From positions 77,963-141,962 of the forward strand of contig DAISWO010000002.1 of assembly GCA_036826295.1 (NCBI GenBank): a stretch of DNA of 64,000 nt, in the 5' to 3' direction. This DNA comes from Candidatus Saccharimonadota bacterium (GTDB lineage: Bacteria > Patescibacteriota > Saccharimonadia > Saccharimonadales > JAGQNJ01). Positions 44,733-61,241 of the stretch are shown in pieces. The notes below the pieces were generated by a model, which did not search any database, had not been told where the DNA came from, and was given only the letters and a program-made list of their open reading frames with translations. Each line of letters starts with the position of its first letter. Position 1 is the stretch's first letter. A program made the translations under genes and the position numbers.

Positions 44733-45650
44733 CTACTGTTTATTTAGCGCTTTTCTAATGCGTCCAGGGATAAATTCGATAGCCTCATCAGCTGACGCTA
44801 CTACAGTTGGGGCATGACGTTCTGATTTAATTACACTAGTATTAAAGTCGCTAAACACTATCTTATTGTGTTGCTGGACTATATGCCTATCCAGATATTG
44901 ATCGTTATCCACGGCAATACATTCTAGATGTGTCGACACGCTACTAGAGCAAATATCGATATTCAGGATTCTATTTAACGTGTAAAAGTGCGTCCGGATG
45001 TCATTTATGCGCCATAGATTAGTTTCAAAGTCGATTCGCAGTCGCTTCTGTTCTGGCGGTTCACTTTTATTATGTCTATCGGCAAACAGTAGGCTCCACC
45101 GCACTAGCGGTTTTATTTTTAGCCCAAGTCGCATTATGCCCGAAACGATCCTAGTTGACAGAATCTTCGTCAATGCCCGAAAAAGCTTCATTTTTCTAGG
45201 CGGATACTTTATGTCACTATGATGTAAAAATCCCACACCGCTAACCAGTAAATCCACTCTATCAGCAAGATCAGGGTATTTTTGCAGCATCCGTGTAGCA
45301 ATTCCAAAACCAAGCGAAACGCTCACGATCGTAATCCGGCGATTGCGGTAACGCAGTTTAATAAAGGCCGCTAAATAATCAGCCAGATTATCAATCGTCG
45401 GCGTTAATCCAATCTTAAAGTAGCTGTCCATCCCACCAAATCCCGGCAAATCCGGTATAGTAATGGCCCCGTAGCGATTGAGTGCTCTAGCGAACCCCTC
45501 CATGCGCTCTAGGCTGGCGTGATGACCATAGACTACTAGTATTTCTTTGGTTTTATTTTTCGGCGCTGGCATACGAAGCATTCGGCCATGCAAACCATTG
45601 ATAATAAATGGCTTAATATAGTGTTCTAAATCTTGATTATTCTTGGTCAT
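44733..45650 (-). CDS. alpha/beta-fold hydrolase-like protein
   Basis: ILVVYGHHASLERMEGF.., IVSVSLGFG nucleophile-elbow-like. Confidence 0.55.
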   Translation of the reverse strand: MTKNNQDLEHYIKPFIINGLHGRMLRMPAPKNKTKEILVVYGHHASLERMEGFARALNRYGAITIPDLPGFGGMDSYFKIGLTPTIDNLADYLAAFIKLRYRNRRITIVSVSLGFGIATRMLQKYPDLADRVDLLVSGVGFLHHSDIKYPPRKMKLFRALTKILSTRIVSGIMRLGLKIKPLVRWSLLFADRHNKSEPPEQKRLRIDFETNLWRINDIRTHFYTLNRILNIDICSSSVSTHLECIAVDNDQYLDRHIVQQHNKIVFSDFNTSVIKSERHAPTVVASADEAIEFIPGRIRKALNKQ

Positions 45651-45729
45651 ATACCTTCATAGCCTACTAAATTTATTTGGTTTAACACAATTAACTGGTG
45701 TAATTTGCTATAATTCTACTACTGATTTT

Positions 45730-46467
45730 ATGAAAAATGAAAAACTTCTGTACGCGGTCGCAATAACACTTCTAGCAATATTTGCTTTTGGCCAGCTAAA
45801 ATCACTGCTAACCCGCGAAGAACAGCGCGCTTATAAGAGTGGCGAGGTGGTGTCTAGTATTAATAAAACCAAATACTCTACATCAGAGCCCGCTAGCCTA
45901 TGGGTAATTGTTAACAAACAAAACCCCTTGCCAAAGACTTACTCACCAGCAAACTTATCCGAAGTTAAAGCGCTAACTGTCACTAATCCAGATGAATCCA
46001 AGCTTCGGGAGGATGCCAACAAGGCTCTAGCAGATCTGGTTAAATCAGCTGGCAAGGAAAAATTAAAATATCAGATGATTAGCGGTTATCGGTCTTATGA
46101 TCTACAAAATATCGTCTACGGCGGTAATGTCAGTAGTGATGGGCAAAAAAAGGCAGATGATACCAGTGCCCGACCAGGGCATAGCGAGCACCAGACTGGG
46201 CTAGCGGTTGATCTAGGTAGGACAGATGGTAAATGTCGGCTAGAGACGTGTTTTGGTGATACTCCGGAAGGCAAGTGGCTAGCTGATAATGCCTACAAAT
46301 TTGGTTTTATCGTGCGTTATCAGCAGGGAGAGCAAGGTATCGTTGGTTATAGTTACGAGCCTTGGCATCTGCGTTATGTCGGCAAGGAGCTAGCGGATGA
46401 ATTGTTTAAGAAGGATTTGACGATGGAAGAGTTTTTTGGGTATCCGGCGGCACCTGATTATAAATAA
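45730..46467 (+). CDS. VanY/M15B-family D-alanyl-D-alanine carboxypeptidase (start moved to ATG 45730)
   Basis: SGYRSYDLQ, HSEHQTGLAVDL, EPWHLRYVG; N-terminal TM anchor. Confidence 0.85.
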   Translation: MKNEKLLYAVAITLLAIFAFGQLKSLLTREEQRAYKSGEVVSSINKTKYSTSEPASLWVIVNKQNPLPKTYSPANLSEVKALTVTNPDESKLREDANKALADLVKSAGKEKLKYQMISGYRSYDLQNIVYGGNVSSDGQKKADDTSARPGHSEHQTGLAVDLGRTDGKCRLETCFGDTPEGKWLADNAYKFGFIVRYQQGEQGIVGYSYEPWHLRYVGKELADELFKKDLTMEEFFGYPAAPDYK

Positions 46468-46482
46468 TTCTCTAACTCAGTT

Positions 46483-46760
46483 TGCAAGCTAGAAGCTTGC
46501 GTAGAATCATACTTTTATCTCCAGCAATAAAAGTATGCAAAAGTGCCGCCCCGGCTCAAGCCACATGATGTAAATTGTTGTTTGTTTGCACCGTGCCTGC
46601 GGAACGCAAGCGATCTGATTCATTGATTTTGAAGTATGGAATCAGATTAGTCCTCGGCATTGATTCGGTACAAATCAAACAAAATTCGCTCAGTGTTTGA
46701 GAGGGGGTATAACAACAACTCAGGAAAAAGCCGATGCCCAGTTTAGACAGCTGGGTGCTG
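46483..46760 (+). repeat. structured repeat SR-A
   Basis: P1 hairpin CATACTTTTAT/ATAAAAGTATG 46508-46537. AAGTGCCGCCCCGGCTCAAGCCAC 46541-46564. Core CCTGCGGAACGCAAGCG 46596-46612. Hairpin ATCTGATTC/GAATCAGAT 46613-46647. TAGTCCTCGGC 46648-46658. Tail TCAGGAAAAAGCCGATGCCCA 46720-46740. Confidence 0.85.
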
Positions 46761-46789
46761 GTTTTAATAAGAAAAACGTTATGAACAAA

Positions 46790-46798
46790 TGATACAAT
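46790..46798 (+). promoter_or_regulatory. extended -10 (TGaTACAAT) 7 nt before ATG 46806
   Basis: read directly. Confidence 0.5.
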
Positions 46799-46805
46799 AT
46801 AGTTT

Positions 46806-47111
46806 ATGAGTGATAGTGCGACAAAAGCTGATTTTAAGCGAGTAGAAAAAAAGATTGACGGTGCTGTCGAGGATTTATCGCAAATTATTTCTGATTTTGC
46901 TAGTATTGTCGACAACCGTTTCAATAAAATTGAAGAGGATATTGCAGACTTGAAGCGTTCTCACGATAGGCTAGTTAACACCATAGATGGTTTTATTGGC
47001 AGAATAGACAAATACGAGACTGAACTTGCTGCGCGGGATCACAAAATTGACCGATTAGAGAAGTGGATAGAGCAGTTAGCTAAAAAAACAAACACAAAAC
47101 TGACAGTTTAA
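46806..47111 (+). CDS. coiled-coil hypothetical protein (101 aa)
   Basis: Heptad-rich sequence; cassette between SR-A and SR-C. Confidence 0.5.
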   Translation: MSDSATKADFKRVEKKIDGAVEDLSQIISDFASIVDNRFNKIEEDIADLKRSHDRLVNTIDGFIGRIDKYETELAARDHKIDRLEKWIEQLAKKTNTKLTV

Positions 47112-47177
47112 TTATCAATAGGTTTTTGAAAGCCTTTGCTTCACGCTTTTCCATAATTATGTGTCGACAAAATTGCG

Positions 47178-47216
47178 ATTACTTTTGGCAGGCAAAAGTA
47201 ATACAAAAGCTCGAGC
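47178..47216 (+). repeat. structured repeat SR-C (partial: P1 + P2 only)
   Basis: ATTACTTTTG-gcagg-CAAAAGTAAT then ACAAAAGCTCGAGC; parallels the SR-D 5' part. Confidence 0.65.
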
Positions 47217-47282
47217 TATCCGCTTTTATTGACATAACTAATACGGTATATATTGACTATAACGCAATAGTATTGTTAAAAT

Positions 47283-47918
47283 ATGATTATGACGGATATT
47301 GAGCGTGGCGAAGCTACGCCTCCACTTTTTGTAATGCGAACGGGGCTGATTTATTCATCACCTTTCGGCTTTTTTGATGATCTAGCTGATTGTCTTGATG
47401 CTCATGTGATTGTCCCGGACGACATCAGGCAAGACTTTATCGAAACACACGATGTTCCTGAGGGATTAGAAAGATCTGCTCCTGTCAGAGAGATGACACG
47501 GATTATTGCCGAGGACCAAGTTATTCGAGGTTTAGAACAGGGTGACAATGTAGTCTACGAGGGCCTTTTGAATCAAATTGAGCGTAGACAACAATTACGA
47601 GAAGTTGCAGAAAGTTGCGGTGCTTTAACGCTGTTAATTGCTACTAGATCATCTTTTGATGATATCTCAAAGAGGATACATCAACGCGCTAATGGCGAAA
47701 TTGATGGTATAGGCCCAGAAGATCAAGACTGGATAGATAGAAAATTATTTGCCTATCATAGCGTCAAGAAAAATATTGAATGGCCAGACGATGAACCGAA
47801 TTTAATATTGCGTTGCGATTTTGATAGAGATAACGAAGAGCTAATACAGATTGTCGAAAAACGTGTTGAGGTAATGTACTCCAAAGTAACCGAAAGTTGT
47901 AACATACTATTATCATGA
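47283..47918 (+). CDS. hypothetical protein (ATG 47289 possible leaderless start)
   Basis: ORF, visibly GC-richer; overlaps the next ORF by 4 nt. Confidence 0.55.
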   Translation: MIMTDIERGEATPPLFVMRTGLIYSSPFGFFDDLADCLDAHVIVPDDIRQDFIETHDVPEGLERSAPVREMTRIIAEDQVIRGLEQGDNVVYEGLLNQIERRQQLREVAESCGALTLLIATRSSFDDISKRIHQRANGEIDGIGPEDQDWIDRKLFAYHSVKKNIEWPDDEPNLILRCDFDRDNEELIQIVEKRVEVMYSKVTESCNILLS

Positions 47919-48541
47919 GGCTAAACGAAACAGCAACTGAATTACTGACTCCTCAATCTCAAGATCTTATTCGTAGGGAAGCGGATGATTTCGATAACCC
48001 TCGAGGTTATACATTTTCTTTAGCGGTAACAAATATCGGCAAACCATTAACAGTCAAACTAACTCAGGCATCAGAAATAATTGAACCTTATGATCCCGAT
48101 TTGGATGGTGTGATTGATAAAGACCCAGTCTATCGGGATGCATTTATCAGAGGCGGTTTATTAGCGGTCAGACTTTGTTACGAACATTTTGGGTCAAATT
48201 TTCGTGGTGAAATGAGAGATTTTGAACATGGACTAGAGCCTCTTCCCGATCCAAAGGATCCATTTTATCCAGAATCAAGAAAAGATAGAACCGAAGCTTT
48301 AAGGGAATTTTCAGAAGACGGTTGGAAAGTTGCGCAACCTACTTTCGGCGATTTATTTGAGCAATGGGAAGATATAGTTGTGCCTGATATATCAGCACAA
48401 TATTATTTGCGACCAGGTTTTGGTTATATTGTTCAGCTTGCATCAAAAGCTGAAGAGGTGATAGCTAGTAAACTAGAGGCTGTAGCCAGTGCGCCATCAG
48501 ATGCTTGGGATGATGCTATGACAAGAGAGTTGTCTCTTTAA
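47915..48541 (+). CDS. hypothetical protein (208 aa)
   Basis: ORF translationally coupled to 47283..47918. Confidence 0.55.
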   Translation: MRLNETATELLTPQSQDLIRREADDFDNPRGYTFSLAVTNIGKPLTVKLTQASEIIEPYDPDLDGVIDKDPVYRDAFIRGGLLAVRLCYEHFGSNFRGEMRDFEHGLEPLPDPKDPFYPESRKDRTEALREFSEDGWKVAQPTFGDLFEQWEDIVVPDISAQYYLRPGFGYIVQLASKAEEVIASKLEAVASAPSDAWDDAMTRELSL

Positions 48542-48587
48542 GCAAAATTCATATCTTTCTGGCGATCCTGTCAGCTCGTGTAGCTCT

Positions 48588-48766
48588 TATACTTTTGACC
48601 GCCAAAAGTATGGCAAAAGCTCGGGCTTAACGTTTTTTCTTGATTGACTCACTAGTCAAGACAAACAACAGGCTGTGGAACTCATCCATCAATAGATGGA
48701 CTCAAACAGTCCTCGCCTGATAGTTGTTTGTTTGACGTATAGTCATCAGGAAAAAGCCGATGCCCA
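48588..48766 (+). repeat. structured repeat SR-D
   Basis: P1 TATACTTTTG/CAAAAGTAT. Helix ACAAACAAC 48661-48669 / GTTGTTTGT 48723-48731. Core GGCTGTGGAAC. Hairpin TCCATC/GATGGA. GTCCTCGCC. Tail 48746-48766 identical to SR-A 46720-46740. Confidence 0.8.
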
Positions 48767-48853
48767 ACGAAAACTACAAAAGAACGCTCTAAATAGTAAA
48801 ATATGGGGGGGCATTATAATAATGCATATTAAGCTAAGGATAGATCAAACATC

Positions 48854-49252
48854 ATGAACAAGACTTACAATTGGTATCAGACACTGCAAAAGCCGTCATG
48901 GTCACCACCAGAATCGCTGTTTGGCCAAGTCTGGTCGGTTTTGTATCTCATTATTTTTTTCAGTTTTGGCATGGTGTTTTACAAGACAGCCTCCAAAGAT
49001 CTACCTTGGCTGGTAGCCTTGCCGTTTGGCCTCAATCTGCTGTTTAACTTTGCATTCACACCTTTACAATTTGGCCTCAAGAACAACCTACTAGCATCAA
49101 TCGATATTCTATTAGTGGTCGTCACGCTAATCTGGGCATTGATAGCAATTTGGCCACACATGCGCTGGGTAGCCCTAGTAAATGTTCCATATCTTCTCTG
49201 GGGCCTCTTCGCCACCGCCCTCCAACTATCCATTACTTATCTAAACAGATAA
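48854..49252 (+). CDS. tspO: TspO/MBR-family tryptophan-rich membrane protein
   Basis: WYQTLQKPSWSPPESLFGQVWSVLYLIIFFSFG and 4-5 TM helices. Confidence 0.8.
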   Translation: MNKTYNWYQTLQKPSWSPPESLFGQVWSVLYLIIFFSFGMVFYKTASKDLPWLVALPFGLNLLFNFAFTPLQFGLKNNLLASIDILLVVVTLIWALIAIWPHMRWVALVNVPYLLWGLFATALQLSITYLNR

Positions 49253-49290
49253 CAAAATTGTTTTTTGCGAGTAAGAACTCGCTTATCTTC

Positions 49291-49480
49291 CATACTTTTC
49301 TCAGTAGCAAGAAAAGTATGCAAAAGTGCCATGCCGACTGTTTGTTCTTGATATAACTTCTAGTCAATGCCTACAACAGCCTGTGGAACGACAAGCGCCC
49401 CGAATTATTGTTTTTGAGTATGAATTCGGGGATGTCCTCGGCTAACTAGTTGTAGGATTGACGGTGTTATTCAGGGACAA
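49291..49480 (+). repeat. structured repeat SR-E
   Basis: P1 CATACTTTTCT/AGAAAAGTATG 49291-49320. Helix CCTACAAC 49370-49377 / GTTGTAGG 49449-49456. Core CCTGTGGAACGACAAGCG. Hairpin CCCCGAATT 49398-49406 / AATTCGGGG 49423-49431. ATGTCCTCGGC. Confidence 0.85.
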
Positions 49481-49546
49481 CAGAGGCAACCAGAATGCAA
49501 TTGGGTTAAAAAAAACACCGCCCTAGAACTTCTATCACATTTAGCC

Positions 49547-49552
49547 TAAAAT
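49547..49552 (+). promoter_or_regulatory. -10 box TAAAAT 7 nt before ATG 49560 (leaderless R-M operon mRNA)
   Basis: read directly. Confidence 0.4.
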
Positions 49553-49559
49553 AGGGGTA

Positions 49560-50423
49560 ATGGGGCAGAAAATTCTTGAAGGTATTATAAAAAAAGCATA
49601 TTTTTCGGATAAGGGTTTTGTGCTTTTTAAAGATAATTCTATTGAATTACTCCAGAAAATCCCTGAAAACAGTATTGATATGATTTTTGCGGATCCTCCA
49701 TATAATCTATCAAATGGTGGTTTTACTGTACACGCCGGCAAAATGGTAAGTGTGAATAAAGGCGAATGGGATAAGAGTAAGGGGCTAAAAGCAGATTTTG
49801 ATTTTCATATACGATGGCTCGAGGAATGCTATAGGGTTCTAAAGCCAAATGGCACTATTTGGGTTAGCGGTACGTACCATTCTATATATCAGTGTGGATA
49901 CGCACTACAACTGCTTGGTTATAAAATTTTGAATGACATCGCATGGTTTAAACCAAATGCGTCCCCAAACCTAAGCTGTAGATATTTTACTGCCAGCCAC
50001 GAGACTTTACTGTGGGCAAGAAAAGACCCGAAGGGAAAGCATACTTTCAATTACGAAGTGATGAAAGGCTGGACAGATAACTACAAAAAACCGTTCAAAT
50101 CACCTACAACTGGCAAACAAGAATATATTGAGATTATGCATGAAGCAGGGAAGCAGATGCGCTCCGTGTGGGCCATAGGTACACCAAAACGAGAAGAAAA
50201 GACATTCGGTAAACATCCAACCCAGAAACCCGTAGCACTACTAGAGCGGGTCGTACTCTCTTCTACTAACAAAGGCGACGTAATCTTGGACCCCTTTACT
50301 GGCAGTTCTACAACAGGGATAGTAGCAGCAAAAAACAACAGGAAATTTATTGGAATAGATCTAGACAAAGAATACCTAGAAGTTTCAATAAAGAGATATA
50401 ATCTACTGAAAGCCGTGAAATGA
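49560..50423 (+). CDS. beta-class N6-adenine DNA methyltransferase, DpnA (M2.DpnII)-like, probable GATC specificity
   Basis: DMIFADPPYNLSNGG (motif IV) precedes ILDPFTGSSTTG (motif I). Long collinear similarity to my recollection of DpnA (SPNLSCRYFT, GKHPTQKP). Confidence 0.88.
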   Translation: MGQKILEGIIKKAYFSDKGFVLFKDNSIELLQKIPENSIDMIFADPPYNLSNGGFTVHAGKMVSVNKGEWDKSKGLKADFDFHIRWLEECYRVLKPNGTIWVSGTYHSIYQCGYALQLLGYKILNDIAWFKPNASPNLSCRYFTASHETLLWARKDPKGKHTFNYEVMKGWTDNYKKPFKSPTTGKQEYIEIMHEAGKQMRSVWAIGTPKREEKTFGKHPTQKPVALLERVVLSSTNKGDVILDPFTGSSTTGIVAAKNNRKFIGIDLDKEYLEVSIKRYNLLKAVK

Positions 50424-51280
50424 TTGATAAAGATTTTGATAAACTGGTTTCAACTTTCAAGAGTTCAATTAAAACCTGGGACTATTTTGTAAATTGGGAC
50501 AAAGTTTATTTAAATTCATCGGAACTTGAAATCGCCCTAAACAAGCTAAATTATTTACTCGGCAAGGAAAAGCTCGAAGAAGAGTTTATAAAATTATATG
50601 CTGATAACTCAGATATAGTTAAAGCACTGCCAGCACTATTGGCAATTAGAGAAAAGAAAATTGAGATTTTTGACAAAGCAACTAAAGATTCAGAATTTTT
50701 TAATTTCAATGATCAATCCGCTGGCGCAAAAAAATATTTCGAATTTATTGAGAAATCTGGACTTGCCAAACTTTTTAAAGAAGATGGGGTCAAGAATCTT
50801 GTCGACTATGTATTAGGGGTTGAGGTAGGGCTTGATAGCAATGGCAGAAAAAATAGAGGCGGTACGTTAATGGAAGACATTGTCGGCACTCTCTTAGCGG
50901 ATTTTTGCAAAGATAATGACTTACAACTAATGTCGCAAGCTACTGCAAAGAAAGTTAAAAATATTTGGGATATTAATATAAAAGTTGATAAATCTGCGCG
51001 AAGTTTCGATTTTGCAGTTTATAACCCCAGAAGTAATAATATAAAGTTATTTGAAGTAAATTTCTATAATGGGGGAGGCTCTAAGCTCAAAGCCGTTTGC
51101 GGTGAGTTTCGTAGTTTGTACGATGAGTTAAAGTCTCAAAGCATTGATTTTGTTTGGATTACAGACGGTTTGGGGTGGCATACTACTAAAAAACCACTTG
51201 AAGAAACTTATAATCATAACGAATTTGTCTTTAACCTTACCATGATCGAAAACAATATATTACAGCGTATGGAGTGGTAG
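50420..51280 (+). CDS. type II restriction endonuclease, DpnII/MboI family (GATC)
   Basis: LVDYVLGVEVGLDSNGRKNRGG, EVNFYNGGGSKL, WITDGLGW match remembered R.DpnII blocks; ATGA overlap with the methylase gene. Confidence 0.85.
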   Translation: MIDKDFDKLVSTFKSSIKTWDYFVNWDKVYLNSSELEIALNKLNYLLGKEKLEEEFIKLYADNSDIVKALPALLAIREKKIEIFDKATKDSEFFNFNDQSAGAKKYFEFIEKSGLAKLFKEDGVKNLVDYVLGVEVGLDSNGRKNRGGTLMEDIVGTLLADFCKDNDLQLMSQATAKKVKNIWDINIKVDKSARSFDFAVYNPRSNNIKLFEVNFYNGGGSKLKAVCGEFRSLYDELKSQSIDFVWITDGLGWHTTKKPLEETYNHNEFVFNLTMIENNILQRMEW

Positions 51281-51506
51281 GGGACGGATACTATAAATTA
51301 ACAATACAATTGCCCTTGTATTCTATAAGTTAGTATATTTATCGTTATTCAGAACACATTAGAATGTATATGGAAATGAGAGCGTGGCTATCCACACATA
51401 AAACTGGGACAGTCTATTCAAAACTTCCTATTCATGAATATTGCACATATGAGTCGTTCGTTTGCAACTGGTCATTTTTATGTTCATGTAATACAATTAG
51501 AAAGAT

Positions 51507-53507
51507 ATGTTGTCAGATCTAGACATCAAGCTAACCTATAGCTCTGCATATGATGACATTGTTAACGATTTTTTTATTCCAACTTTAAAACAATCGATTT
51601 CATATGATAGAGTCGCAGGGTATTTTTCTCCGTCAGTGTTAGCACTCGCTTCGGTTGGCATTGCTAGTTTCGTAAAAGAGAAAAAAGGAAAAATTAGAAT
51701 TATATGCAGTGTGAATATTAGCTCTAAGCTTTGCGATGCGATAATGGAAGACGACGGCTCGAAAATATCATTAGACGAAATGTCGGTAACAGAGCTAACT
51801 TCTGAACTCGAGAAAGACTATTATAGACTGTTTGTAAAAATGTTAAATGCAGGAATTATAGAATTAAAGATTGTTGCTATGGATAATGCGTTTAATATTT
51901 TTCATTCAAAAATTGGCATATTAAAAGATTCAGCTGGAAATGCCGTTTCTTTTGTCGGTTCGGTTAATGAAACATCAAACGCGTGGCAAGGAAATATAGA
52001 GGATTATCCAACTTTTACATCCTGGCGTCCTGGCGGGCAAGAATATATAGATAAATATATGTCAATATTTGAAGCATACTGGAATGGGGACATACCTAGA
52101 TCTACCACATTCAGCCTCAGTAAATCAGTGATTAACCGCATCCAAGAAATTTCAGGTGCTAACCAATTTGAGACCACTGAATTAGTTAAAAAAATCGAGA
52201 GCAAGTTGGTTGAAGAGAAAAAGAAACCCTATAAATATCAATTGAAAGCAATCGAGAACTGGAAAAATGCAAATTATAACGGGATATTTGCAATGGCAAC
52301 AGGGACCGGAAAAACATTTACGGCACTATGCGGATTAAAAGATTATTTCTTATCATCCGACGTCAATGTTGCTATCGTTGTCGTGCCACTAGCGCAACTA
52401 GTGTATCAATGGGTGGAGGAGATTAAAGACCATGAATTTTTCGCTAAAGCAAATATAATTATGGCACCATACGCTAGAGACTGGAAAAAAACAATAAAAG
52501 ATGAGCTATTCTACAATAGCGGGGGCAATAATTTAATCGTGGTCACTACTTATTCAACGTTTTTCACGGAAGATTTCATAAAAATCTTTAAGAGCTACGG
52601 TAAGACAACAATGCTGATAGCTGATGAGGTACACAACGTTGCTGGTGGCGCTAGACTTGAACATTCTGACTTTATATCAGAATTTCATTCAAAGTTGGGG
52701 TTAAGTGCGACACCGTTAAGCATTTGGTCAGAAGATAATTCTAATCAAATGATTGATTTGTTTGGGGGTGTGGTATATGAATACAGCTTAGAAAAGGCAT
52801 TGAAAAAGAATGATCTTACAAATTTTGATTATGAATACTTTGAAGTTCCACTGACTCAGCAGGAGTTTGAAGAGTATGTAGACCTATCGAAAAAAATATA
52901 TCCAAAAACAAACGAAGACAAAAAATTATCTGGAACAAGTGCAGAAATAAAAAGAGCAAACATAAAGAAGAATGCAGAGCAAAAAGTTTTAATGCTCGAA
53001 AAAAAACTTGCAACGCATAGTTTTGACATTAAAAAAACTTTGATTTACGCAAACGATCAAATTCAATTAGATAAAATACAAAAAATGATGGATGTCCATG
53101 GTCTAAAAACAAGTAGATTTACCGGTGAAGAGAAAAACCCAGTATTAAGAAAAAGCATTATCGAAAACCTCGAAGATGAGATATATGATGCAGTAGTTGC
53201 AATCAAATGTCTAGATGAAGGAGTAGATATTCGTTCAGCCCAAACCGCCTACTTAATTTCGAATAATACGGAGCCAAGGGAGTACACTCAACGATTAGGG
53301 AGAGTACTTAGGAAGTGTGAAGGTAAGAAGCTATCTTATGTAGTGGATTTTGTTGTTGTGCCCCCCGAGTCGTTTCGAGACAATAAATACGGAAAGCAAT
53401 TAGTTAAAAATGAACTAAAAAGAGTCGGTTTCTTCTCTGATCTTGCATCGAATAGTTCGGATGTTGCGGGTCATTTAATTGATACTAAACTAAAATACGG
53501 TATATAA
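51507..53507 (+). CDS. HKD(PLD)-family nuclease fused to SF2 (ResIII/DEAH-type) helicase
   Basis: FHSKIGILKD..GSVNETSNAW; helicase motifs AMATGTGKT, IADEVHN, SATP, QRLGRVLR. Confidence 0.85.
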   Translation: MLSDLDIKLTYSSAYDDIVNDFFIPTLKQSISYDRVAGYFSPSVLALASVGIASFVKEKKGKIRIICSVNISSKLCDAIMEDDGSKISLDEMSVTELTSELEKDYYRLFVKMLNAGIIELKIVAMDNAFNIFHSKIGILKDSAGNAVSFVGSVNETSNAWQGNIEDYPTFTSWRPGGQEYIDKYMSIFEAYWNGDIPRSTTFSLSKSVINRIQEISGANQFETTELVKKIESKLVEEKKKPYKYQLKAIENWKNANYNGIFAMATGTGKTFTALCGLKDYFLSSDVNVAIVVVPLAQLVYQWVEEIKDHEFFAKANIIMAPYARDWKKTIKDELFYNSGGNNLIVVTTYSTFFTEDFIKIFKSYGKTTMLIADEVHNVAGGARLEHSDFISEFHSKLGLSATPLSIWSEDNSNQMIDLFGGVVYEYSLEKALKKNDLTNFDYEYFEVPLTQQEFEEYVDLSKKIYPKTNEDKKLSGTSAEIKRANIKKNAEQKVLMLEKKLATHSFDIKKTLIYANDQIQLDKIQKMMDVHGLKTSRFTGEEKNPVLRKSIIENLEDEIYDAVVAIKCLDEGVDIRSAQTAYLISNNTEPREYTQRLGRVLRKCEGKKLSYVVDFVVVPPESFRDNKYGKQLVKNELKRVGFFSDLASNSSDVAGHLIDTKLKYGI

Positions 53508-53529
53508 TGCAAGATATTAAGGTTAGGAT

Positions 53530-53712
53530 ATGAGCACAACGATCAATAAGACAATACTTGCACAGATTGACTCCTCTAATTATTCGGACGAGGTAAAGTA
53601 CCTTGTTACTCAATTTATCCAGAAGGAAAAAGAACATTTTGAATCTCATCTAGATTTTGCAAAAGAACTTGATAAATTAATTAAAGTTGTCACAGATGAA
53701 AAGTTTAAATAG
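53530..53712 (+). CDS. small hypothetical protein (60 aa) of the defence operon
   Basis: ORF with AGGTTAGGA SD-like sequence; 3' end overlaps the ATPase start. Confidence 0.45.
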   Translation: MSTTINKTILAQIDSSNYSDEVKYLVTQFIQKEKEHFESHLDFAKELDKLIKVVTDEKFK

Positions 53713-55597
53713 CATACGAATAAAAAACTTTATGTGTTACGAAGATCAAACTATTGATTTTGAAAAAGATATTGGTCTATATTTGATTACTGGCGATAAC
53801 AACGCTGGTAAATCAACGATTTTTAACGCCATTAGCTGGTGCTTTTTCGAGAAAACTCCCTTCAGAAAACCAGGAGACGATATAGATATTGAGTTCTCGG
53901 GTAAATTAAAAGGTGCACCTACAGAAATCGAAGTACGCTTCACGCTGGACAACAATAAATTTTCAATATTTAGAAAGCTCGGCGGGTTGAATGGTTCGAA
54001 GCAAGTAGTGTCAAGTGTTAGTAAGAGCGGCGGTCTACAACCCATTTATTTTCATGCCGACGATTTAATATCGAAATTTTTACCAGAAAATATTAAGCAT
54101 TTATTTATGTTTGATGGTGAGATGATTAAGAATTTGTTTGACGATGATACAAGAGAAGGATTAAAAAACAGCATAAAATACATTAGCGACATAAACGTGC
54201 TAGAGCGTGCGAACCGTCATATAAGTAGTGAAGCTACCAAACTTTTAAAAAAAACCACCACAGATCGGAAGCAGTCTGAGCAGATCGATCAATTAGAGTC
54301 GACAATAGATAACAACAACACAAGAATTGAAGATTTTAAGAAAAAAGTCTCAGAGAAAAATAAAAGGATAAATGAGAATAAACAACGCTTGGATGATTTG
54401 GACGAACGGATAGAGAAAAACAAAGGTTATGAAGATCTATTGGCTATAAAAAATCGGAGCAACAACGAACGCAAAAAATCCGAAGAGTTAATAGAACTTG
54501 AAGAAAAAGATATGTTCAAGATGCTGACAGAGATTACACCCTTCATAATGGTTTACGACAAAATGTCTAAATTAGTAGGCACAATTGACGAAGAGATTGA
54601 CTTACACAATCTCCCAGCACCTATCGAACCATCTGAGCTCAAAAAGTTTGTTAAAGATGGGAAATGTGTTTGTGGGACGAAGGTAGACGAAAAGATAGAA
54701 AAACATTTTTTGAAACTGATCGACGAGTATTCGAAAGTTAATGAGAAGCAATATATTGTAGACATCTCAAAAGACTTCTGGTCTATTACGAATTCCATAA
54801 AGGATCTTACGAGTAAAATTGAGGACTCTCGCTCTAGGATAGCGAAAAATCGGCAATATAAAAACGAGCAAAATCTAGAGTTTGATATGGCGGTAGAAAA
54901 GCTAGATAAAATCCAAAGCATAGATCCCGAAGCTGACAAAGCATCCAGGAGAGATTTAATCGACTTGAATAATAAGTTAACTGAAGAAGTTACTGATTTG
55001 AAAAGAGATATTGTGCAGCTCGAAGCCGATGTGAGAAATGACACTATTACGAGAGATAACATACGACGAGATTTAGCGAAAGCCGAAGGAAAGAATTCTA
55101 AAATTAACCTACTACAAGAAGCAATGCAACTTATTGAGGAAACCATCAAAAAGACAACTCATGACACTAAGAATTTAATCGAAAGAAAGTTTAATGACAC
55201 ATTTTTAGAGCTGTCCGGAACAACAAATTTCACCGGGATAAAAATGGAGGACGACTATTCAATAATGCTAAAAACGGCTGATGGTTCGTACAGGGGGCCA
55301 TCTGGATTTGGGACTGGTTATCATAAAATGCTAGGCCTTTCTATTGTCTTTGCCTTGAGCGAACACCTAGATAATTCAGATTTTCCAATAATGGTTGACA
55401 ACCCTTATGATTCAATCGCTCCAGAGCATAAGCCGACGATTAATAGTTACCTAAAAAAACTCTCGAAAAAGAAACAGGTAGTAGTGACTGCCCTTGATGA
55501 AGAAGAGATGCTTGAAGGATTTAGCAAGGATGATGTAATGCGTCATTTTTTTATATCTCAGAAAAATAATGTTTCTAGTGTGGAGATAAAAAAATGA
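53696..55597 (+). CDS. SMC/Rad50/DndD-like ABC ATPase with long coiled coil (ATG 53696; TTG 53687 alternative)
   Basis: IRIKNFMCYEDQTIDF..ITGDNNAGKST Walker A. About 300 aa K/E/L-rich. CVCG in the middle. C-terminal GFGTGYHKMLGLSIVFAL..FPIMVDNPYDSI (signature/Walker B-like). Confidence 0.8.
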   Translation: MKSLNSIRIKNFMCYEDQTIDFEKDIGLYLITGDNNAGKSTIFNAISWCFFEKTPFRKPGDDIDIEFSGKLKGAPTEIEVRFTLDNNKFSIFRKLGGLNGSKQVVSSVSKSGGLQPIYFHADDLISKFLPENIKHLFMFDGEMIKNLFDDDTREGLKNSIKYISDINVLERANRHISSEATKLLKKTTTDRKQSEQIDQLESTIDNNNTRIEDFKKKVSEKNKRINENKQRLDDLDERIEKNKGYEDLLAIKNRSNNERKKSEELIELEEKDMFKMLTEITPFIMVYDKMSKLVGTIDEEIDLHNLPAPIEPSELKKFVKDGKCVCGTKVDEKIEKHFLKLIDEYSKVNEKQYIVDISKDFWSITNSIKDLTSKIEDSRSRIAKNRQYKNEQNLEFDMAVEKLDKIQSIDPEADKASRRDLIDLNNKLTEEVTDLKRDIVQLEADVRNDTITRDNIRRDLAKAEGKNSKINLLQEAMQLIEETIKKTTHDTKNLIERKFNDTFLELSGTTNFTGIKMEDDYSIMLKTADGSYRGPSGFGTGYHKMLGLSIVFALSEHLDNSDFPIMVDNPYDSIAPEHKPTINSYLKKLSKKKQVVVTALDEEEMLEGFSKDDVMRHFFISQKNNVSSVEIKK

Positions 55598-56058
55598 TAG
55601 ATTCTGAAAATTGGCCAGCAGTAAAAACATCGAAAGAAGTTCACGCGCAAATCGAAGATCTTCAAAATTCCGAAGGGTTTTTCCGAGGGATGAACCAGAT
55701 AGAGATTATGAAACTTGGAGCAGCTCATACTATTAAGAATGGACTGTCGGCTCCAGCAGAACATAAGAGAGAAACCGATATATCAGCACCTAAATATGTA
55801 GCGAGCAAAGAAACTATGTATGTAAACCTACGTATGCTTATGCTGTTATGTTACTCTACCGATTCTGGTATCAAAATTAGCGATGATTTTGAAAGAATTG
55901 ATATTGTTAAAACTTTTGAAAGATTTGCCGAAGCAGGTATTAGGGACCTGCATGATAAATACATAATTGGGAGCGATACACCCGAAGACTTTCTCAGACT
56001 TGCTTTTGAAGATGCACAATCGGTGAAACCAGCAATAGAAGAAAAGTTATCGAATTAG
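55594..56058 (+). CDS. small protein, tentatively DndE-like (DUF1832-type) DNA-binding protein
   Basis: VKTSKEVHAQIEDLQNSEGFF..IMKLGAAHTI resembles the DndE N-terminal pattern as I remember it; ATGA-coupled to the ATPase. Confidence 0.4.
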   Translation: MIDSENWPAVKTSKEVHAQIEDLQNSEGFFRGMNQIEIMKLGAAHTIKNGLSAPAEHKRETDISAPKYVASKETMYVNLRMLMLLCYSTDSGIKISDDFERIDIVKTFERFAEAGIRDLHDKYIIGSDTPEDFLRLAFEDAQSVKPAIEEKLSN

Positions 56059-56115
56059 GTTAGGAGGTCAGGGGGGGTTTGAGGGGCGTCCTCTAACGGA
56101 TAGGGAGAATTTGAA

Positions 56116-56427
56116 ATGTATGAGAATTTGAAGGATAGACTAAAAAAAGATTTTGATGTTGATCTGGACATATCAGGCGGTAATGGTAAAAGCTTAGCTG
56201 ATCCAATCGTAATCAACCAAAGTATTAGAGACTGTGTTGGTACAGAATATTATATTGTTAAGTTAATTTTTCAAGCAATGGGCAAAGAGTGGAAAACCGT
56301 AAAACAAACTATAGTTACTGCAGCTGACAAGAAAATTGATCAACTTACCATTGAAGTAACTGATGTTGACGGGGCTAAACACGAAACAGATTTTTATTTC
56401 GACATAACCAAGCATATTAAAAATTAA
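56116..56427 (+). CDS. hypothetical protein (103 aa), last gene of the defence cassette
   Basis: ORF with GGGAGA SD; no motif. Confidence 0.45.
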   Translation: MYENLKDRLKKDFDVDLDISGGNGKSLADPIVINQSIRDCVGTEYYIVKLIFQAMGKEWKTVKQTIVTAADKKIDQLTIEVTDVDGAKHETDFYFDITKHIKN

Positions 56428-56539
56428 TGGGGTTTGAAATACTTTTTGGTTGTATTGATGCTGATAAAAAATCAATACTACCCTGGGGTTTGAAATACTT
56501 TTTGGTTGTATTGATGCTGATAAAAAATCAATACTACCC
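56428..56539 (+). repeat. perfect tandem duplication of a 56-nt unit, followed by a diverged partial third unit starting at 56540
   Basis: TGGGGTTTGAAATACTTTTTGGTTGTATTGATGCTGATAAAAAATCAATACTACCC x2; each unit contains hairpin GTATTGAT/ATCAATAC. Confidence 0.92.
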
Positions 56540-56836
56540 TGGGATTTGAAAGGTGTCTCTGAATTTTCCTGAGCAGAGGTTGTGCCTGTTTGAGTTATTT
56601 TCCCCTCTCAAACACTGACGTAGCGAATTTGTTTTTGGTTGAATCATTTTCGAGGACCACTCCCGAACCATACAATAGAATAATGTTCGGGAGCGCTTTG
56701 CGTTCCGCAGAAACGATCAAAAACTAATTTGTGACCATCACGTGGCTTGAGCCGGGGCGGCACTTTGCCATACTTTCTTGCTGACTGAGAAAGTATGAAA
56801 AATCCGCAAACCGTAGGATCGTAAGAAAAGTATTTT
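56540..56836 (-). repeat. structured repeat SR-B (inverted relative to SR-A, C, D, E)
   Basis: Reverse complement carries P1 CATACTTTCT/AGAAAGTATG (56769-56797). The 24-nt block at 56742-56765 is identical to SR-A. CTGCGGAACGCAAAGCG (56694-56710). Hairpin CTCCCGAAC/GTTCGGGAG. GTCCTCG. Confidence 0.88.
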
Positions 56837-56867
56837 GATATAGCGGAGTTCAGACCTCTAAATAAGT

Positions 56868-56873
56868 TATACT
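56868..56873 (+). promoter_or_regulatory. -10 box TATACT 6 nt before ATG 56880
   Basis: read directly. Confidence 0.4.
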
Positions 56874-56879
56874 TGCACT

Positions 56880-57572
56880 ATGGATAACAATATTCGTCTT
56901 AAAGAATTGAAAGAGTTATCATCAATCGAAATACCGGCTGGCACTAATAGACTTCAAACCGCTCTTTTAATTGCTGATTTTGCCCATAGTGCTTTTTCGC
57001 ACAACGGCGACAGCAAACCCAGCTCATCTGACCCTGTGACTATACTGACAGAAGCACAGGCAGGTTCAAGCTTCAGATGCGTAGAATACAGTCACCTAGC
57101 CGCATGGCTTATGGTCGCCCACGGGATTGATGTCCGGACGTTGAACATTATGAACAAAGACGTCGAAACAATGGAATATGGCGCCGGTCATGTCGTTGTT
57201 GAATTTTATGAAGGCAAACAACACGGTTGGGTCATGGCGGATATCCAGGCGGGTGTTGTCGCCAGACAAGGAGGCGTGTTGCAATCAGCTTTTGAGCTAA
57301 GAGATTCTTTAGATGAAGCAAGCATAGAAGATTTTAGAGGGAATAAATTCGTCGCAGCGAAAGGGATGTTTGGCGGCAATTACAAAGAATGGCTCCGACC
57401 GTACCTATATTTTATAGACAGGTCAAAAAAACTTAATTACGAATACTCTGACGACTCAGAGCCGCATTTAATACTGGTGCCTGACGGCGGTAAGCCACCC
57501 AAGTTTTTTCAGCGGAATCATAAGCTCAATCTTATTGTTACGTCGCCTGATGTTTTTTATAAAGTAAAATAA
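56880..57572 (+). CDS. transglutaminase-like (Cys-His-Asp) domain protein
   Basis: SFRCVEYSHLAAWLMVAHGIDVR .. GAGHVVVEFY .. GWVMADIQ spacing typical of the TGase core. Confidence 0.55.
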   Translation: MDNNIRLKELKELSSIEIPAGTNRLQTALLIADFAHSAFSHNGDSKPSSSDPVTILTEAQAGSSFRCVEYSHLAAWLMVAHGIDVRTLNIMNKDVETMEYGAGHVVVEFYEGKQHGWVMADIQAGVVARQGGVLQSAFELRDSLDEASIEDFRGNKFVAAKGMFGGNYKEWLRPYLYFIDRSKKLNYEYSDDSEPHLILVPDGGKPPKFFQRNHKLNLIVTSPDVFYKVK

Positions 57573-57595
57573 ATATAGTATGGAGCGGAAGGTCT

Positions 57596-58096
57596 TTGGT
57601 CATAGTTTGCAGTTTTCCTGTGCATCTGGTTTTCCTAAGCAGATGTTCTATTTGTATTTACTACCACAATCCTACTGCCAGTGAACTGGCAATCGGTTGT
57701 CGCCACGCCTCGACTCGGGCAATAATTTGCGCCGGGCTTCCGGCCTTGCAAACTGCCACAGGCAGTTCTCACCTTATCAAAAAACAGAGGGAATGGGAGG
57801 TTTATTGTCCGAATGAATGCTGAGGACTAATCCGATTCCATACAATGGAATAATGAATCGGATCGCTTGCGTTCCACAAGCACGGACTAGAAACATCCCA
57901 AGACCATCTATCTTTTTGATAGGGCGGCTTTTTTGCATACTTTGGTAGCTGCAGACAAAAGTATGAAAATATATTTCAAAGCTTTGTTTTTTGTTTCGCA
58001 GGGCACCTTTGCCATTCCGCTAGACAGCAGATTCTTACTGACTGAGAAAGTATGTGAAATTCGCGAACCGTAGGATCACAAGAAAAATGTTTTGTA
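57596..58096 (-). repeat. structured repeat SR-F (composite: full core plus a second partial copy of the P1-side end)
   Basis: Reverse complement has CTTGTGGAACGCAAGCG + ATCCGATTC/GAATCGGAT + TAGTCCTCAGC (57819-57880). P1 at 57946-57975. 58040-58096 repeats SR-B 56780-56836. Confidence 0.8.
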
Positions 58097-58219
58097 GTTT
58101 TGGGCTGGTGTAAGAGTTCTGTGCTCTAGACGTTTGTCTGTACCTGTTCTATGGCACTATCGTCTTTGATATCAGTACGCATAATTGTTGGTAAGACCGA
58201 AACAGGCTAGAATTAAGCC

Positions 58220-58510
58220 ATGAAGAAACTCGTAATTATATCGTTTATAGTAGCGGCGATAATCTTCTTGTTACTACCATCACGCAGCGAAGAACTTTAC
58301 AGATGCCCCGACGGGTCTACTGTTTGTCCAGCCTTATACTCGTCTGAGACTAAACAATTCACCGGTATGACTCTTTACGGATTATTGACACCAGATAATG
58401 AAGCCGACGACCAAACCTACAGCGATTTAGCTAGAAATTCACTGATCTTTATTCCACCTTTTATTCTTCTAAGTGTTTATCTATACAACAAAAGAAAAAC
58501 CCACAAATAA
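58220..58510 (+). CDS. small membrane protein (96 aa)
   Basis: N- and C-terminal TM helices. Confidence 0.45.
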   Translation: MKKLVIISFIVAAIIFLLLPSRSEELYRCPDGSTVCPALYSSETKQFTGMTLYGLLTPDNEADDQTYSDLARNSLIFIPPFILLSVYLYNKRKTHK

Positions 58511-58531
58511 CCAAAATTTGTTGATATTTGT

Positions 58532-59221
58532 TTAGGCTACTTTTTGGTCTTGAATATATTCGGGGCCTAAATTGATGTCCGTAACGTTTGGCGACCTGCG
58601 CAGAGCAAGCACTGGATGCCCGGTGACTAGTTCTCCGATCAAAAAGGGGCGATTATCTGATGGAGGATTGCCCATGAAGTCGGGATTAAAATCCTGATCG
58701 GATAGTGTCGCCTGAAGCGCCCCCAGTACCATCATTGTGTCCTCATTCCTCTCCATAGAGAGTTCTTTGAATACTTCTTCAATTTGCTTGGTTGTGTGGT
58801 ATCCACCAATTCCGATACCTGTCTCGGCAACTGACTCAATAACGTTCGACTTGCCAGCACCGGGATACGATAGGAAACGTTCGCCATCAAATGTCCCAGC
58901 AACAACATACTCAATGATTATTCGTGTAGTCTTATATACTGCCTCTGGATCGTTATATTTTTCGCGTGCGATTGCTCCGAGCATGGTTGAAGCAAACAAG
59001 TCTAATCCATTAGCAATTTCCTCCGGTTGTTCAGCTATTTTCTCTAAATACTGTCCAGATTCACGCTGTAATAAATGACCGAGCTCAGCCTCGGCCCACT
59101 GGCAAGCTGTCTCGTAATTGTTTGAATCTGATTCAAAATTCGTTGACATTTTTACTCCATTTATTATTGATGAGCAACGTATTATTATAATGCATTTAAG
59201 ATATGTTTGCAATATGTCCAC
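58532..59221 (-). CDS. hypothetical protein (229 aa or shorter)
   Basis: ORF only. Confidence 0.5.
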   Translation of the reverse strand: MDILQTYLKCIIIIRCSSIINGVKMSTNFESDSNNYETACQWAEAELGHLLQRESGQYLEKIAEQPEEIANGLDLFASTMLGAIAREKYNDPEAVYKTTRIIIEYVVAGTFDGERFLSYPGAGKSNVIESVAETGIGIGGYHTTKQIEEVFKELSMERNEDTMMVLGALQATLSDQDFNPDFMGNPPSDNRPFLIGELVTGHPVLALRRSPNVTDINLGPEYIQDQKVA

Positions 59222-59253
59222 GATTAAGTTCTTGGCCCATGATGTTAAAAATT

Positions 59254-59455
59254 CGTACTACTTTTGTTTAGTTTAAAAAGCAATGTAGGACCATCGTATT
59301 CCTGTTAGCCAACTGAAGTGAAATCTTTTGTTTTTGGATAGCTATTGTGGAAAGACAAGCACCCTTCGCAATTATTTTAGACTATTGGCGCAAAGTAGTT
59401 CTCGGAATTGACTCAACTAAAAACAAACCCATTCACTTAACGTCAGGAGAGGCAC
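59254..59455 (+). repeat. structured repeat SR-G (degenerate)
   Basis: ATTGTGGAAAGACAAGC 59344-59360, AGTTCTCGG 59396-59404, TCAGGAGAGG tail, decayed P1 TACTACTTTTG..AAAAAGCAATG. Confidence 0.55.
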
Positions 59456-59512
59456 ACAGAATACTGCAGAACATGATTGCATTTGCTAATATTATGTGTT
59501 ATAGTTATATAT

Positions 59513-60028
59513 ATGAGTGAATTTATATCATTAGGAGAAATAATAACAGAGCCCGATGGGAGCAATCTGGTCCCTGTTGCTGTTTACAAAGCAATAGACG
59601 TACAAACAACTTCAGACCCTGAAGGCAACAAAGTCTATGAGGTGGTAATAGAGCGTCCTGTTGAGCAAGAAGAACGTTATTATCCTGAATTCGGCCTTTA
59701 TTCAGATGTGCCATATTTAAGGACTGTTGTTGTCCCCGAACAAGATGTTATTACTACTGATAATTCTCCAGACGCCAAATACAGACTATTTAGCGGTGTA
59801 GTCGTAGAGCGTGCTCCTCGCGGTCCATCTCGATTAGATCTAATGGGCAGTTTCGACGAACTTCTAGAAGCATCTAATGGAGACGATCAAGAGGAAGTTG
59901 CCGTTGCTCGTGCAGCCGCACTTGGTGCGTTACATCGCTGCGTGATTGATGAATTTCGGCCGATAACAAATTCTAGTGGTCAAGCTCAAGTTGACCCAAG
60001 ACCACTATTGGTAGGTAAAACACAATAG
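59513..60028 (+). CDS. hypothetical protein (start moved to ATG 59513 behind TGtTATAGT)
   Basis: ORF; extended -10 about 6 nt upstream. Confidence 0.5.
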   Translation: MSEFISLGEIITEPDGSNLVPVAVYKAIDVQTTSDPEGNKVYEVVIERPVEQEERYYPEFGLYSDVPYLRTVVVPEQDVITTDNSPDAKYRLFSGVVVERAPRGPSRLDLMGSFDELLEASNGDDQEEVAVARAAALGALHRCVIDEFRPITNSSGQAQVDPRPLLVGKTQ

Positions 60029-60101
60029 CACAACAAAGTCCTTGTTATTGCCTTGGTGTTTAATTAATCCTCAAATACTGAAGAGGTCTTATTTGCATGT
60101 T

Positions 60102-60995
60102 CTAATTAATTAGAGTTTGTAACCCAACCCACACATATTCCCATGGCTCTGGCTCTGGGCCCTGATCATCCACACCCTCAGGATAGCTAGGTAGGAAACC
60201 AACTGTTTTTGCGACTTTGTAATTATCTTTCTTTAGCCAATTAAAACAAACGGTGTATTTAAACGACTTCTGACCGTCGCCACACACAAAATCAACGGTG
60301 TAGCCGTTATGGTGTCTAGAGTAGCCGGGAGGGGCAGTAGTCAACAGCACGCTGGCAATTTTGTCATCAAGACTGCCACTTGGTATCTTGGCCACGTCAA
60401 CACCAGCCGAGGCCAATCTAGACACAAACAGACTCTTTTGAAGCTCTATTGATCTATAGCCAGAATTTAACTTAAGGGGAATTCCAGCGCGATCAGCTTT
60501 ACTCTTTAGTGCTCTCCATGACAAATAGGCTTTTGGCTGAAGCAAATCATCTTCACCGAGTCCAGGCTCGTTAGTTTTTACAATTGGAAGTTTAGGAACC
60601 GAGCGGAGTAGATAGCCACGACTCTCAGCAATGGTTCTAATCCGTTTATCAGCATCAGCATTGCCAGTGATATCAGGCGGGCTACTTAAAGGGGCGGTAT
60701 TAGGATAAACAATTGTCTCGTATAATTTTTGTATCTGATCGCCGGTCAAATAGTTAAAGTTAGAGTCGCTAACACCAGCCACTTTTGATGAATCTACTTC
60801 AATACTGGTCGCAAGTGTCGCGTTATTATCTTGATGCTTTAAAGCAGTTTCTTTATATGAGTTGGCAAGTGATAAAAATAATAAGCTAATAATTAACAGG
60901 CCAGCAATAATTACCAGAGGCCGAGTGTGCGTACGTTTTGATCTAGATATTTTTTTTCGAGATTGATGTCTGGTTTTTGGTTCGATTATTCTCAT
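60102..60995 (-). CDS. VanY/M15-family peptidase, membrane anchored
   Basis: SGYRSIELQ, GYSRHHNGYTVDF, EPWEYVW; N-terminal TM. Confidence 0.78.
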   Translation of the reverse strand: MRIIEPKTRHQSRKKISRSKRTHTRPLVIIAGLLIISLLFLSLANSYKETALKHQDNNATLATSIEVDSSKVAGVSDSNFNYLTGDQIQKLYETIVYPNTAPLSSPPDITGNADADKRIRTIAESRGYLLRSVPKLPIVKTNEPGLGEDDLLQPKAYLSWRALKSKADRAGIPLKLNSGYRSIELQKSLFVSRLASAGVDVAKIPSGSLDDKIASVLLTTAPPGYSRHHNGYTVDFVCGDGQKSFKYTVCFNWLKKDNYKVAKTVGFLPSYPEGVDDQGPEPEPWEYVWVGLQTLIN

Positions 60996-61122: not shown

Positions 61123-61196
61123 TTCGGGATCGTCTAATGGTAGGACACTGGTTTTTGGTACCAGCAATCTAGGTTCAAATCCTAGTCCCGAAGCCA
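61123..61196 (+). tRNA. tRNA-Gln (anticodon UUG), U1-A72, CCA encoded
   Basis: TTCGGGA/TCCCGAA acceptor, CTGGT-TTTTGGT-ACCAG, CTAGG-TTCAAAT-CCTAG; 74 nt. Confidence 0.9.
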
Positions 61197-61241
61197 TCCT
61201 TCGTCACTATGCTTTAAACGCATAGTTATGAAGGATTTTTT
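61196..61241 (+). terminator. tRNA-trailer hairpin/terminator (family copy 2)
   Basis: ATCCTTC-gtca-CTATGC..GCATAG-ttat-GAAGGAT + TTTTTT. Confidence 0.7.

Follow-up and report, generated by a model that had tools for sequence, protein, structure and literature searches.

Two convergent VanY (M15 peptidase) genes, at 45643-46467 on the plus strand and at 60102-60995 on the minus strand, are located in the stretch of Candidatus Saccharimonadota DNA analysed here (64,000 nucleotides (nt) of contig DAISWO010000002.1, called the window), and the 13.6 kb between them, 46468..60101, constitutes an insertion; the island is missing from the relatives L123 and L151, where these genes have a 4-nt overlap. 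A VanY protein of the window is 100% identical to an NCBI entry, and the window is assigned to a metagenome-assembled genome of Candidatus Saccharibacteria. The insertion carries copies of a structured repeat (SR), which is an undescribed Saccharibacteria family of hairpin-forming intergenic DNA repeats of about 250 bases, present in several genomes. We read SR, with a probability of roughly 0.5, as a non-coding, non-autonomous mobile palindromic repeat of the general kind of miniature inverted-repeat transposable elements (MITEs), REP/REPIN, ERIC and Correia elements.

Repeat copies in the accessory island

Judged from its sequence the insertion is a defence or accessory island, and it encodes a DpnII methylase and endonuclease, PbeA- and PbeC-like proteins, TspO, a transglutaminase-like protein and several unknown proteins. 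No integrase or transposase domain is found in the 14 open reading frames (ORFs) of the island, the region 1-36 kb of the window lying outside the protein-domain scan. An SR unit is about 250-300 nt long and consists, from 5' to 3', of a TTGCG-like head, a GC-rich hairpin (P0), a second hairpin (P1, CAUACUUUU..AAAAGUAUG), a linker and a long hairpin, the rod; P1 and rod alone span 160-190 nt. All seven copies proposed in the first-pass annotation are present at the positions it gave, five of them full (A, D and E on the plus strand, B and F on the minus strand), with C truncated and G decayed. The common architecture ascribed to all seven can be traced by multiple alignment in A, B, D, E and F, but not in C, which is a fragment, nor in the decayed G. 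The copies, with their scores in the covariance model R1, are located as follows.

46482..46760, plus strand: SR-A, A-type copy; R1 59 bits, E 8e-12.
46482-46486, 46484-46500, 46508-46696 and about 46594-46658, plus strand: parts of SR-A, respectively TTGCA head, P0, P1 with rod, and inner helix/core.
46735-46757, plus strand: terminator-like hairpin at the 3' end of SR-A, preceded by the apical hairpin ATCTGATTC/GAATCAGAT and then a remnant of a D-type arm (CTCAGGAAAAAGCCGATGCCCA).
47178..47216, plus strand: SR-C, truncated D-like copy with P1 and linker only, matching D at 77% over 48 nt.
48563..48766, plus strand: SR-D, D/E-type copy; P1 and rod at 48588-48753; apical hairpin TCCATC/GATGGA; R1 135 bits, E 3e-29.
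49264..49492, plus strand: SR-E, D/E-type rod with an A-type tip; TTGCG head; P0 at 49267-49282; P1 and rod at 49291-49478; R1 132 bits, E 1e-28.
56428..56539, plus strand: two perfect 56-nt tandem repeats (100%), following the gene at 56116-56427 and abutting the 3' tail of SR-B.
56540..56836, minus strand: SR-B, A-type copy; P1 and rod at 56612-56797; R1 28 bits, E 1e-4; inverted-repeat pair, 93% to A.
57596..58096, minus strand: SR-F, A-type copy; P1 and rod at 57784-57965; R1 44 bits, E 2e-8; inverted-repeat pairs, 91% to A.
57596-57783 and about 57985-58096, minus strand: long 3' tail and additional partial 5' copy belonging to SR-F.
59254..59455, plus strand: SR-G, decayed A/B-type copy with 66% identity and a fold z of 0.0, missed by R1.

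R1 was built from 14 D/E-type copies, comprising copies from other genomes together with D and E of the window. Run over the window it recovers A, B, D, E and F and otherwise only reverse-strand matches to the palindromic P1, and in 739 kb of unrelated bacterial DNA it has zero matches. The core pattern GGAACG..AAGCG..GTCCTC and the P1 hairpin pattern ATACTTT..AAAGTAT are matched 4 and 5 times in the window, all within 46.5-58 kb, against 0.00-0.01 matches expected by chance. A further hairpin, GTATTGAT..ATCAATAC, is located inside each of the two 56-nt tandem repeats at 56428-56539.

Anatomy and fold of the repeat unit

The TTGCG head (or TTACG/TTGCA) precedes P0 in nearly all copies, about 20 from several genomes, the P0 itself being of differing sequence. 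P0, a small GC hairpin resembling an intrinsic terminator, is situated 10-20 nt past the stop codon of the preceding gene; the tail also holds a terminator-like hairpin. The rod, about 170 nt long, folds into an imperfect hairpin of about 75 base pairs. Its inner helix (GCCUGYGGA/UCCUCGGC) is conserved and its tip is hypervariable, consisting of a 6-16-bp hairpin of nearly any sequence or of a short loop. The blocks CCTGYGGAAC and GTCCTCRGC, earlier described as unpaired, are instead the two strands of this one covarying inner helix, in which 5'-(GCC/GCU/GGC/UUC)-U-G-Y-GGA pairs with UCC-U-C-(GGC/AGC/GCC/GAA)-3', leaving a bulged U and a Y.U mismatch, and the small P2 hairpin assigned to SR-A is better read as the outer portion of the long helix. 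Rods of the D/E subtype have in addition three fixed short helices, CUUGA/UCAGG (with the U.G wobble retained), GUCAA/UUGAC and ACAAC/GUUGU, with freely covarying stretches between them.

With RNA parameters, the folds of copies A, B, D, E and F surpass those of their shuffles in stability, with z from -3.2 to -6.4. Covariation was measured in a MAFFT alignment of 14 copies (A5) and in a model-fitted alignment of 23 copies that includes divergent subfamilies (A7), the latter being tilted towards structure because it was fitted to the model. Standard pairs fill 94.3% of the cells in A5 and 94.0% in A7, and 21 of 47 pairs in A5 and 42 of 47 in A7 have changed on both sides. The observed values were attained by 0-2 of 500 shuffles in A5, depending on the measure, and by none of 500 in A7, and when the partners were slid by 1-3 columns only 36-45% (A5) or 35-45% (A7) of the cells were paired. 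This strong covariation, which holds across genomes, supports the earlier view of a selected or maintained fold and not a mere repetition of sequence.

Compensation of this kind might also arise in functionless quasi-palindromes by template switching or gene conversion, the variable tip then coming from breakage and repair at the end of the hairpin. Both strands do fold nearly equally well overall, the tip is the most variable part, and deletions between short repeats are seen (F', C). Blind correction would however erase the bulged U, the Y.U mismatch and the helices CUUGA/UCAGG, GUCAA/UUGAC and ACAAC/GUUGU, all of which persist across genomes and subfamilies, and it leaves the dispersal to new loci unexplained; we find this origin quite unlikely.

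No conserved ORF is found across the SR copies. The tails can be translated into '..TTTQEKADAQ..' and short MPS... peptides, but neither the frames nor the starts are conserved, and a coding function was rejected. A role of the apical inserts as guide RNAs found no support, the 3 kb surrounding each copy holding no match to them above 8-11 nt, and a retron, a diversity-generating retroelement or a group II intron was discarded, the island having no reverse transcriptase and no Rfam match. SR had been called an unassigned family, and this stands: with E allowed up to 10, Rfam has nothing relevant either for the island or for the parts of L139 and L145 that carry SR. Nor was a conserved sigma-70-type promoter flagged upstream of P0 or P1 by a consensus scan of the island; the hexamers at the head are by eye weak and variable, and on reading the sequence no conserved -35 and -10 regions are seen upstream of P1 or between P0 and P1. 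TTGCGA-N17 was dismissed as a promoter, its -10 hexamers being weak and variable.

Several of the island genes show a -10-like hexamer, in some cases after TG, that ends 6-7 nt before the start codon, without a Shine-Dalgarno sequence (46785-46808, 47253-47291, 49545-49562 and 56862-56882), which suggests that they may be transcribed into leaderless mRNAs. The SR units are not 5' leaders, because these island-gene promoters sit downstream of SR.

Dispersal, gain and loss

The DNA sampled comprises 64 kb of this genome and flanks of about 10 kb from other genomes. A metagenome scan with a pattern that fits all five full copies of the window gave 14 loci, of which 13 are real; L134 and L137 are the same sequence, and L136 is an apparent chance match in coding DNA. 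A single Saccharibacteria assembly, Ga0155608 (OGL30579, OGL31065), accounts for seven of the loci, where closely similar copies stand beside unrelated housekeeping genes. In this assembly and in L147, a Patescibacteria contig from Hainich groundwater, copies are located after atpC, the OTCase gene, tsaD and rpoD (the last in L147), and in the divergent purC/purE spacer. Wider SR neighbourhoods include gyrA, mraW, ftsW, groEL, PBP and Mur ligase genes (among 25 of 78 matched families). R1 also finds further SR subfamilies. SR occurs in both orientations. When tallied on the gene maps, about 15 of about 23 copies directly follow a gene of the same orientation, and about 8 face the 5' end of their neighbour. 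At seven loci R1 finds two units placed tail-to-tail, 76-105 nt apart, and the resulting pair of about 600 nt aligns as a whole between unrelated loci, indicating that the pair was copied as a unit.

R1 has no match in L123, L149 or L151, and no SR is found at the VanY/VanY junction of L149 or L151. A stricter pattern gave no match over the metagenomes, and a looser one gave 120 loci over the genome contigs, all of them rejected as chance matches. The SR search pattern has no match in viral contigs, and BLAST against phages and plasmids gave nothing significant. The 3' motif ACAACTCAGGAAAAAGCCGATRCCCAG (46713-46741 of the window) matched only tape-measure-like coding genes ('YTTQEKADAQ'), with 26-27 nt in two IMG/VR viral contigs (L132 6490-6516 and L133 686-712); these matches exceed the expectation for the 19-nt search seed and are not accompanied by wider similarity.

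Gain or loss at one site can be followed behind atpC. The spacer between atpC and the convergent gene is 72 nt in L155 and L156 and contains an ordinary terminator and no SR, while in L139 it is 617 nt and consists of SR1 on the plus strand, SR2 on the minus strand and a partial SR3 on the minus strand; the flanking proteins of L139 are 68% and 77% identical to those of L155/L156. Lineages also differ at the VanY/VanY junction, which is empty in L123 and L151. The family thus displays both presence/absence at an orthologous site and near-identical copies at unrelated loci, as a mobile repeat would.

In the syntenic island of L124 the slot upstream of gene1 is filled by a D-type rod, in contrast to the A-type rod of the window, and the slot downstream of gene1 by an A-type copy, in contrast to mere fragment C in the window. 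This A-type copy (10338-10644) is 89-92% identical to SR-A, compared to 79.6% in adjacent core DNA, and it has a 62-nt insertion at 10431-10491, precisely between CCTG and CGGAACG of the conserved core, which shows that the SR core tolerates or attracts insertions. L124 also has orphan 3' arms, and in L122 yet another rod occupies the SR-A slot between identical flanks. Together with the truncated C, the decayed G, the tandem partial copy in F and chimeric combinations of rod and tip, the 62-nt core insertion and the orphan arms make up the kind of debris that a mobile repeat leaves. Two independent metagenome contigs from relatives, L121 (ending at 2646) and L122 (ending at 11101), break off at SR-A or no farther than about 360 nt from it, consistent with short-read assemblies being broken by the repeat family.

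The layout of the island had led to a comparison with integron attC sites, and SR could be a folded-strand recombination site of integron-like capture with its recombinase encoded elsewhere, SR being the point where cassettes enter or are swapped, possibly in between the two tails of a pair. Most of the gene groups in the island are indeed separated by SR, the copies lying between successive accessory genes; like attC, SR has a variable sequence on a conserved fold with extra-helical and mismatched bases, here the conserved bulge and mismatch; two genomes with unchanged flanks differ in the rod upstream of gene1, which is A-type in one and D-type in the other; and E on the plus strand and B on the minus strand bracket the 7-kb DpnII/Pbe block tail-to-tail, a layout that is found 'empty' at seven other loci. 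Cargo was seen bracketed in this way just once, however, and no empty version of the E/B site came to light. A copy between every accessory gene or group, as first proposed, is not the case, with none at 51280/51507, 53507/53687, 56058/56116 or 58510/58532, nor at the right edge of the island. Elsewhere the copies stand beside housekeeping genes without cassettes, they are of mixed orientation (B and F are inverted in the window) and frequently arranged in tail-to-tail pairs, and the island and sampled loci show neither attI nor an integrase (the latter among 14 island ORFs and, near other copies, 25 of 78 matched families). With 250-300 nt SR is also 2-4 times larger than attC (57-141 nt), and it lacks the attC core motifs, both of which had been pointed out before. 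When the sequence is read for R''/R' boxes (RYYYAAC/GTTRRRY) none are present at the stem base; the only AAC/GTT pair is ACAAC/GUUGU deep in the rod, where neither CTACAAC nor AAACAAC conforms to RYYYAAC and GTTGTAG departs from GTTRRRY. We therefore consider integron-like capture highly improbable, and the comparison with attC as the explanation of the cassette layout is given up in favour of a mobile repeat.

Two further features of the window were observed. Adjoining the DpnII restriction-modification pair, the region 51507-55597 encodes a PLD-helicase protein (PbeA-like, E 1e-180 in PADLOC) and a DndD/SMC-like ATPase (PbeC-like). Beyond the second VanY gene, tRNA-Gln (61123-61196) is followed by a 46-nt direct repeat (61223-61268 and 61400-61445, 83%) and by an AAA_33 kinase-like gene (61478-62023); L123 and L151 have no such gene between the second VanY gene and the next one, which suggests a second small insertion beside the tRNA.

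A proposed mobile palindromic repeat and its relation to known systems

A mobile repeat is the best explanation for SR because it accounts for the dispersal, the filled and empty site, the subtype copies that are more alike than the core DNA around them, the two orientations, the debris and the lack of a conserved ORF or promoter. SR units and tail-to-tail pairs are copied into intergenic DNA, as is shown by the dispersed near-identical copies and the filled versus empty orthologous site. In such a scheme the copying would be carried out by an enzyme encoded elsewhere, which might recognise the folded single strand or the ends made up of head plus hairpin. Copies would accumulate in this island because its spacers tolerate insertions, and homology among them would then drive swaps, deletions and inversions, giving the appearance of a string of cassettes.

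Several points weigh against this interpretation. The SR pairs end in inverted TTGCG-plus-hairpin sequences, where no direct target-site duplication is visible, and the exact termini are not definable, at atpC because the filled and empty spacers share no alignable sequence. Neither among the 14 island ORFs nor among the sampled genes near other copies (25 of 78 matched families) did a transposase, a REP-associated tyrosine transposase (RAYT) or a recombinase turn up. Conservation is highest in the inner helix near the tip, and not at the outer ends as in classical terminal-inverted-repeat elements; most but not all copies are co-oriented with the upstream gene; and the genomes were sampled in part. 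Finally, there is a modest excess of G.U cells (36) over A.C cells (12), and the consensus fold has -40.0 kcal/mol on the sense strand versus -33.0 on the antisense strand, where the G.U count is inflated and the strand figures are biased because the structure was derived on the sense strand. The G.U excess and the better sense fold hint at a function in one specific strand, which can also be explained by an RNA role.

An RNA-level role is the main rival, and could coexist with mobility. SR would then be a functional structured RNA, either a cis-acting element of the 3' untranslated region or terminator region (mRNA stabiliser, insulator, RNase- or protein-binding site) or a small RNA, and its spread would be secondary. 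The very strong covariation, the conserved unpaired nucleotides and the conserved irregular helix all agree with this, as do the strand asymmetries just given, including a wobble that 10-13 of 14 copies retain, according to which alignment is used, the position of about 15 of the 23 or so copies just 3' of a co-oriented gene, and the terminator-like P0 and tail hairpins. The A-type copies, on the other hand, show no consistent difference in energy between sense and antisense, and prediction on the sense strand by itself inflates G.U. There is no conserved promoter between P0 and P1, and a terminator-like P0 placed before the rod would limit read-through into it; roughly eight copies face the 5' end of a neighbour; pairs also stand in divergent spacers (such as purC/purE) and in L135, which no transcript from upstream would enter; and truncated and chimeric copies are common. 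A functional RNA is in our view possible, though rather unlikely as the primary explanation.

If SR is a mobile repeat, the enzyme that moves it would be encoded elsewhere, and one candidate was followed. The related contig L130 has at 5200-6030 a 202-residue Y1_Tnp gene (RAYT/IS200-like) flanked by small GAGGTCAGACCYC palindromes, and tblastn finds no homologue of it in the window or in the SR-bearing loci (flanks of about 10 kb), so that this gene was rejected as a RAYT lead. The sequence GAGTTCAGACCTC at 56846-56858, just outside P0 of SR-B, is one base from the GAGGTCAGACCYC palindromes, and the SR tails of Ga0155608 contain AGGCCTGACC, a part of the L130 palindrome motif. With 3 matches in the window versus 0.9 expected, the occurrence of such a motif near SR may be a lead to the mobilising enzyme or may be chance.

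Among known systems the REP and PATE types, to which SR had also been likened, are closer to the evidence than attC. Like REP and REPIN sequences, SR is extragenic, non-coding and multi-copy, occurs in both orientations and has a short conserved head (GTAG in REP, TTGCG in SR) before a variable, imperfectly palindromic hairpin, and like a REPIN it has an inverted doublet as the replicating unit and a long hairpin fold kept by compensatory changes. It differs from them in length (250-300 nt, about 600 nt for pairs, where a REP has 20-40 nt and a REPIN about 100 nt), in its three distinct hairpins and conserved internal-loop core, and in that no RAYT is found near SR copies or in the window. SR also resembles ERIC in Enterobacteria, Correia/CREE in Neisseria, bcr1 in the Bacillus cereus group and RUP/BOX in pneumococcus, which are imperfect intergenic palindromes of 100-160 nt, often co-transcribed, that occur in either orientation and have size variants from indels at fixed points, a conserved predicted hairpin, and an association with variable regions and rearrangements. 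SR is longer than these, with a conserved inner helix in place of terminal inverted repeats, no target-site duplication seen, and tail-to-tail pairs. The PATE elements, which are non-autonomous derivatives of IS200/IS605, resemble SR in being non-coding, bounded by hairpins and presumably substrates as single-stranded DNA, but their end hairpins are short and on the same strand, whereas an SR pair has its rods on opposite strands and neither TnpA nor TnpB in its vicinity.

A bolder interpretation is that the SR rods, whose irregular inner helix is conserved and whose tip can be exchanged freely, are the nucleic-acid partner of an uncharacterised trans-acting Patescibacteria recombinase or transposase, with the tail-to-tail pairs as landing pads and cargo such as the 7-kb DpnII/Pbe block between E on the plus strand and B on the minus strand captured between the tails. 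We hold this to be very unlikely; if true, the SR landing pads would represent an integron-like or bridge-RNA-like capture of genes in bacteria with ultra-small genomes.

No repeat family of this kind in Saccharibacteria or Patescibacteria is described in the literature searched, and as far as we have found SR is the first structured MITE/REPIN-like repeat described for Saccharibacteria. The genomes of Patescibacteria are tiny and tightly packed, and in the present one SR marks a variable defence island. The family is a likely cause of breaks in metagenome contigs and may be a substrate when recombination reshuffles the accessory genes of Saccharibacteria, which are naturally competent. The family also offers a handle on its mobilising enzyme, and R1 together with the search pattern provides a ready means to map the family.

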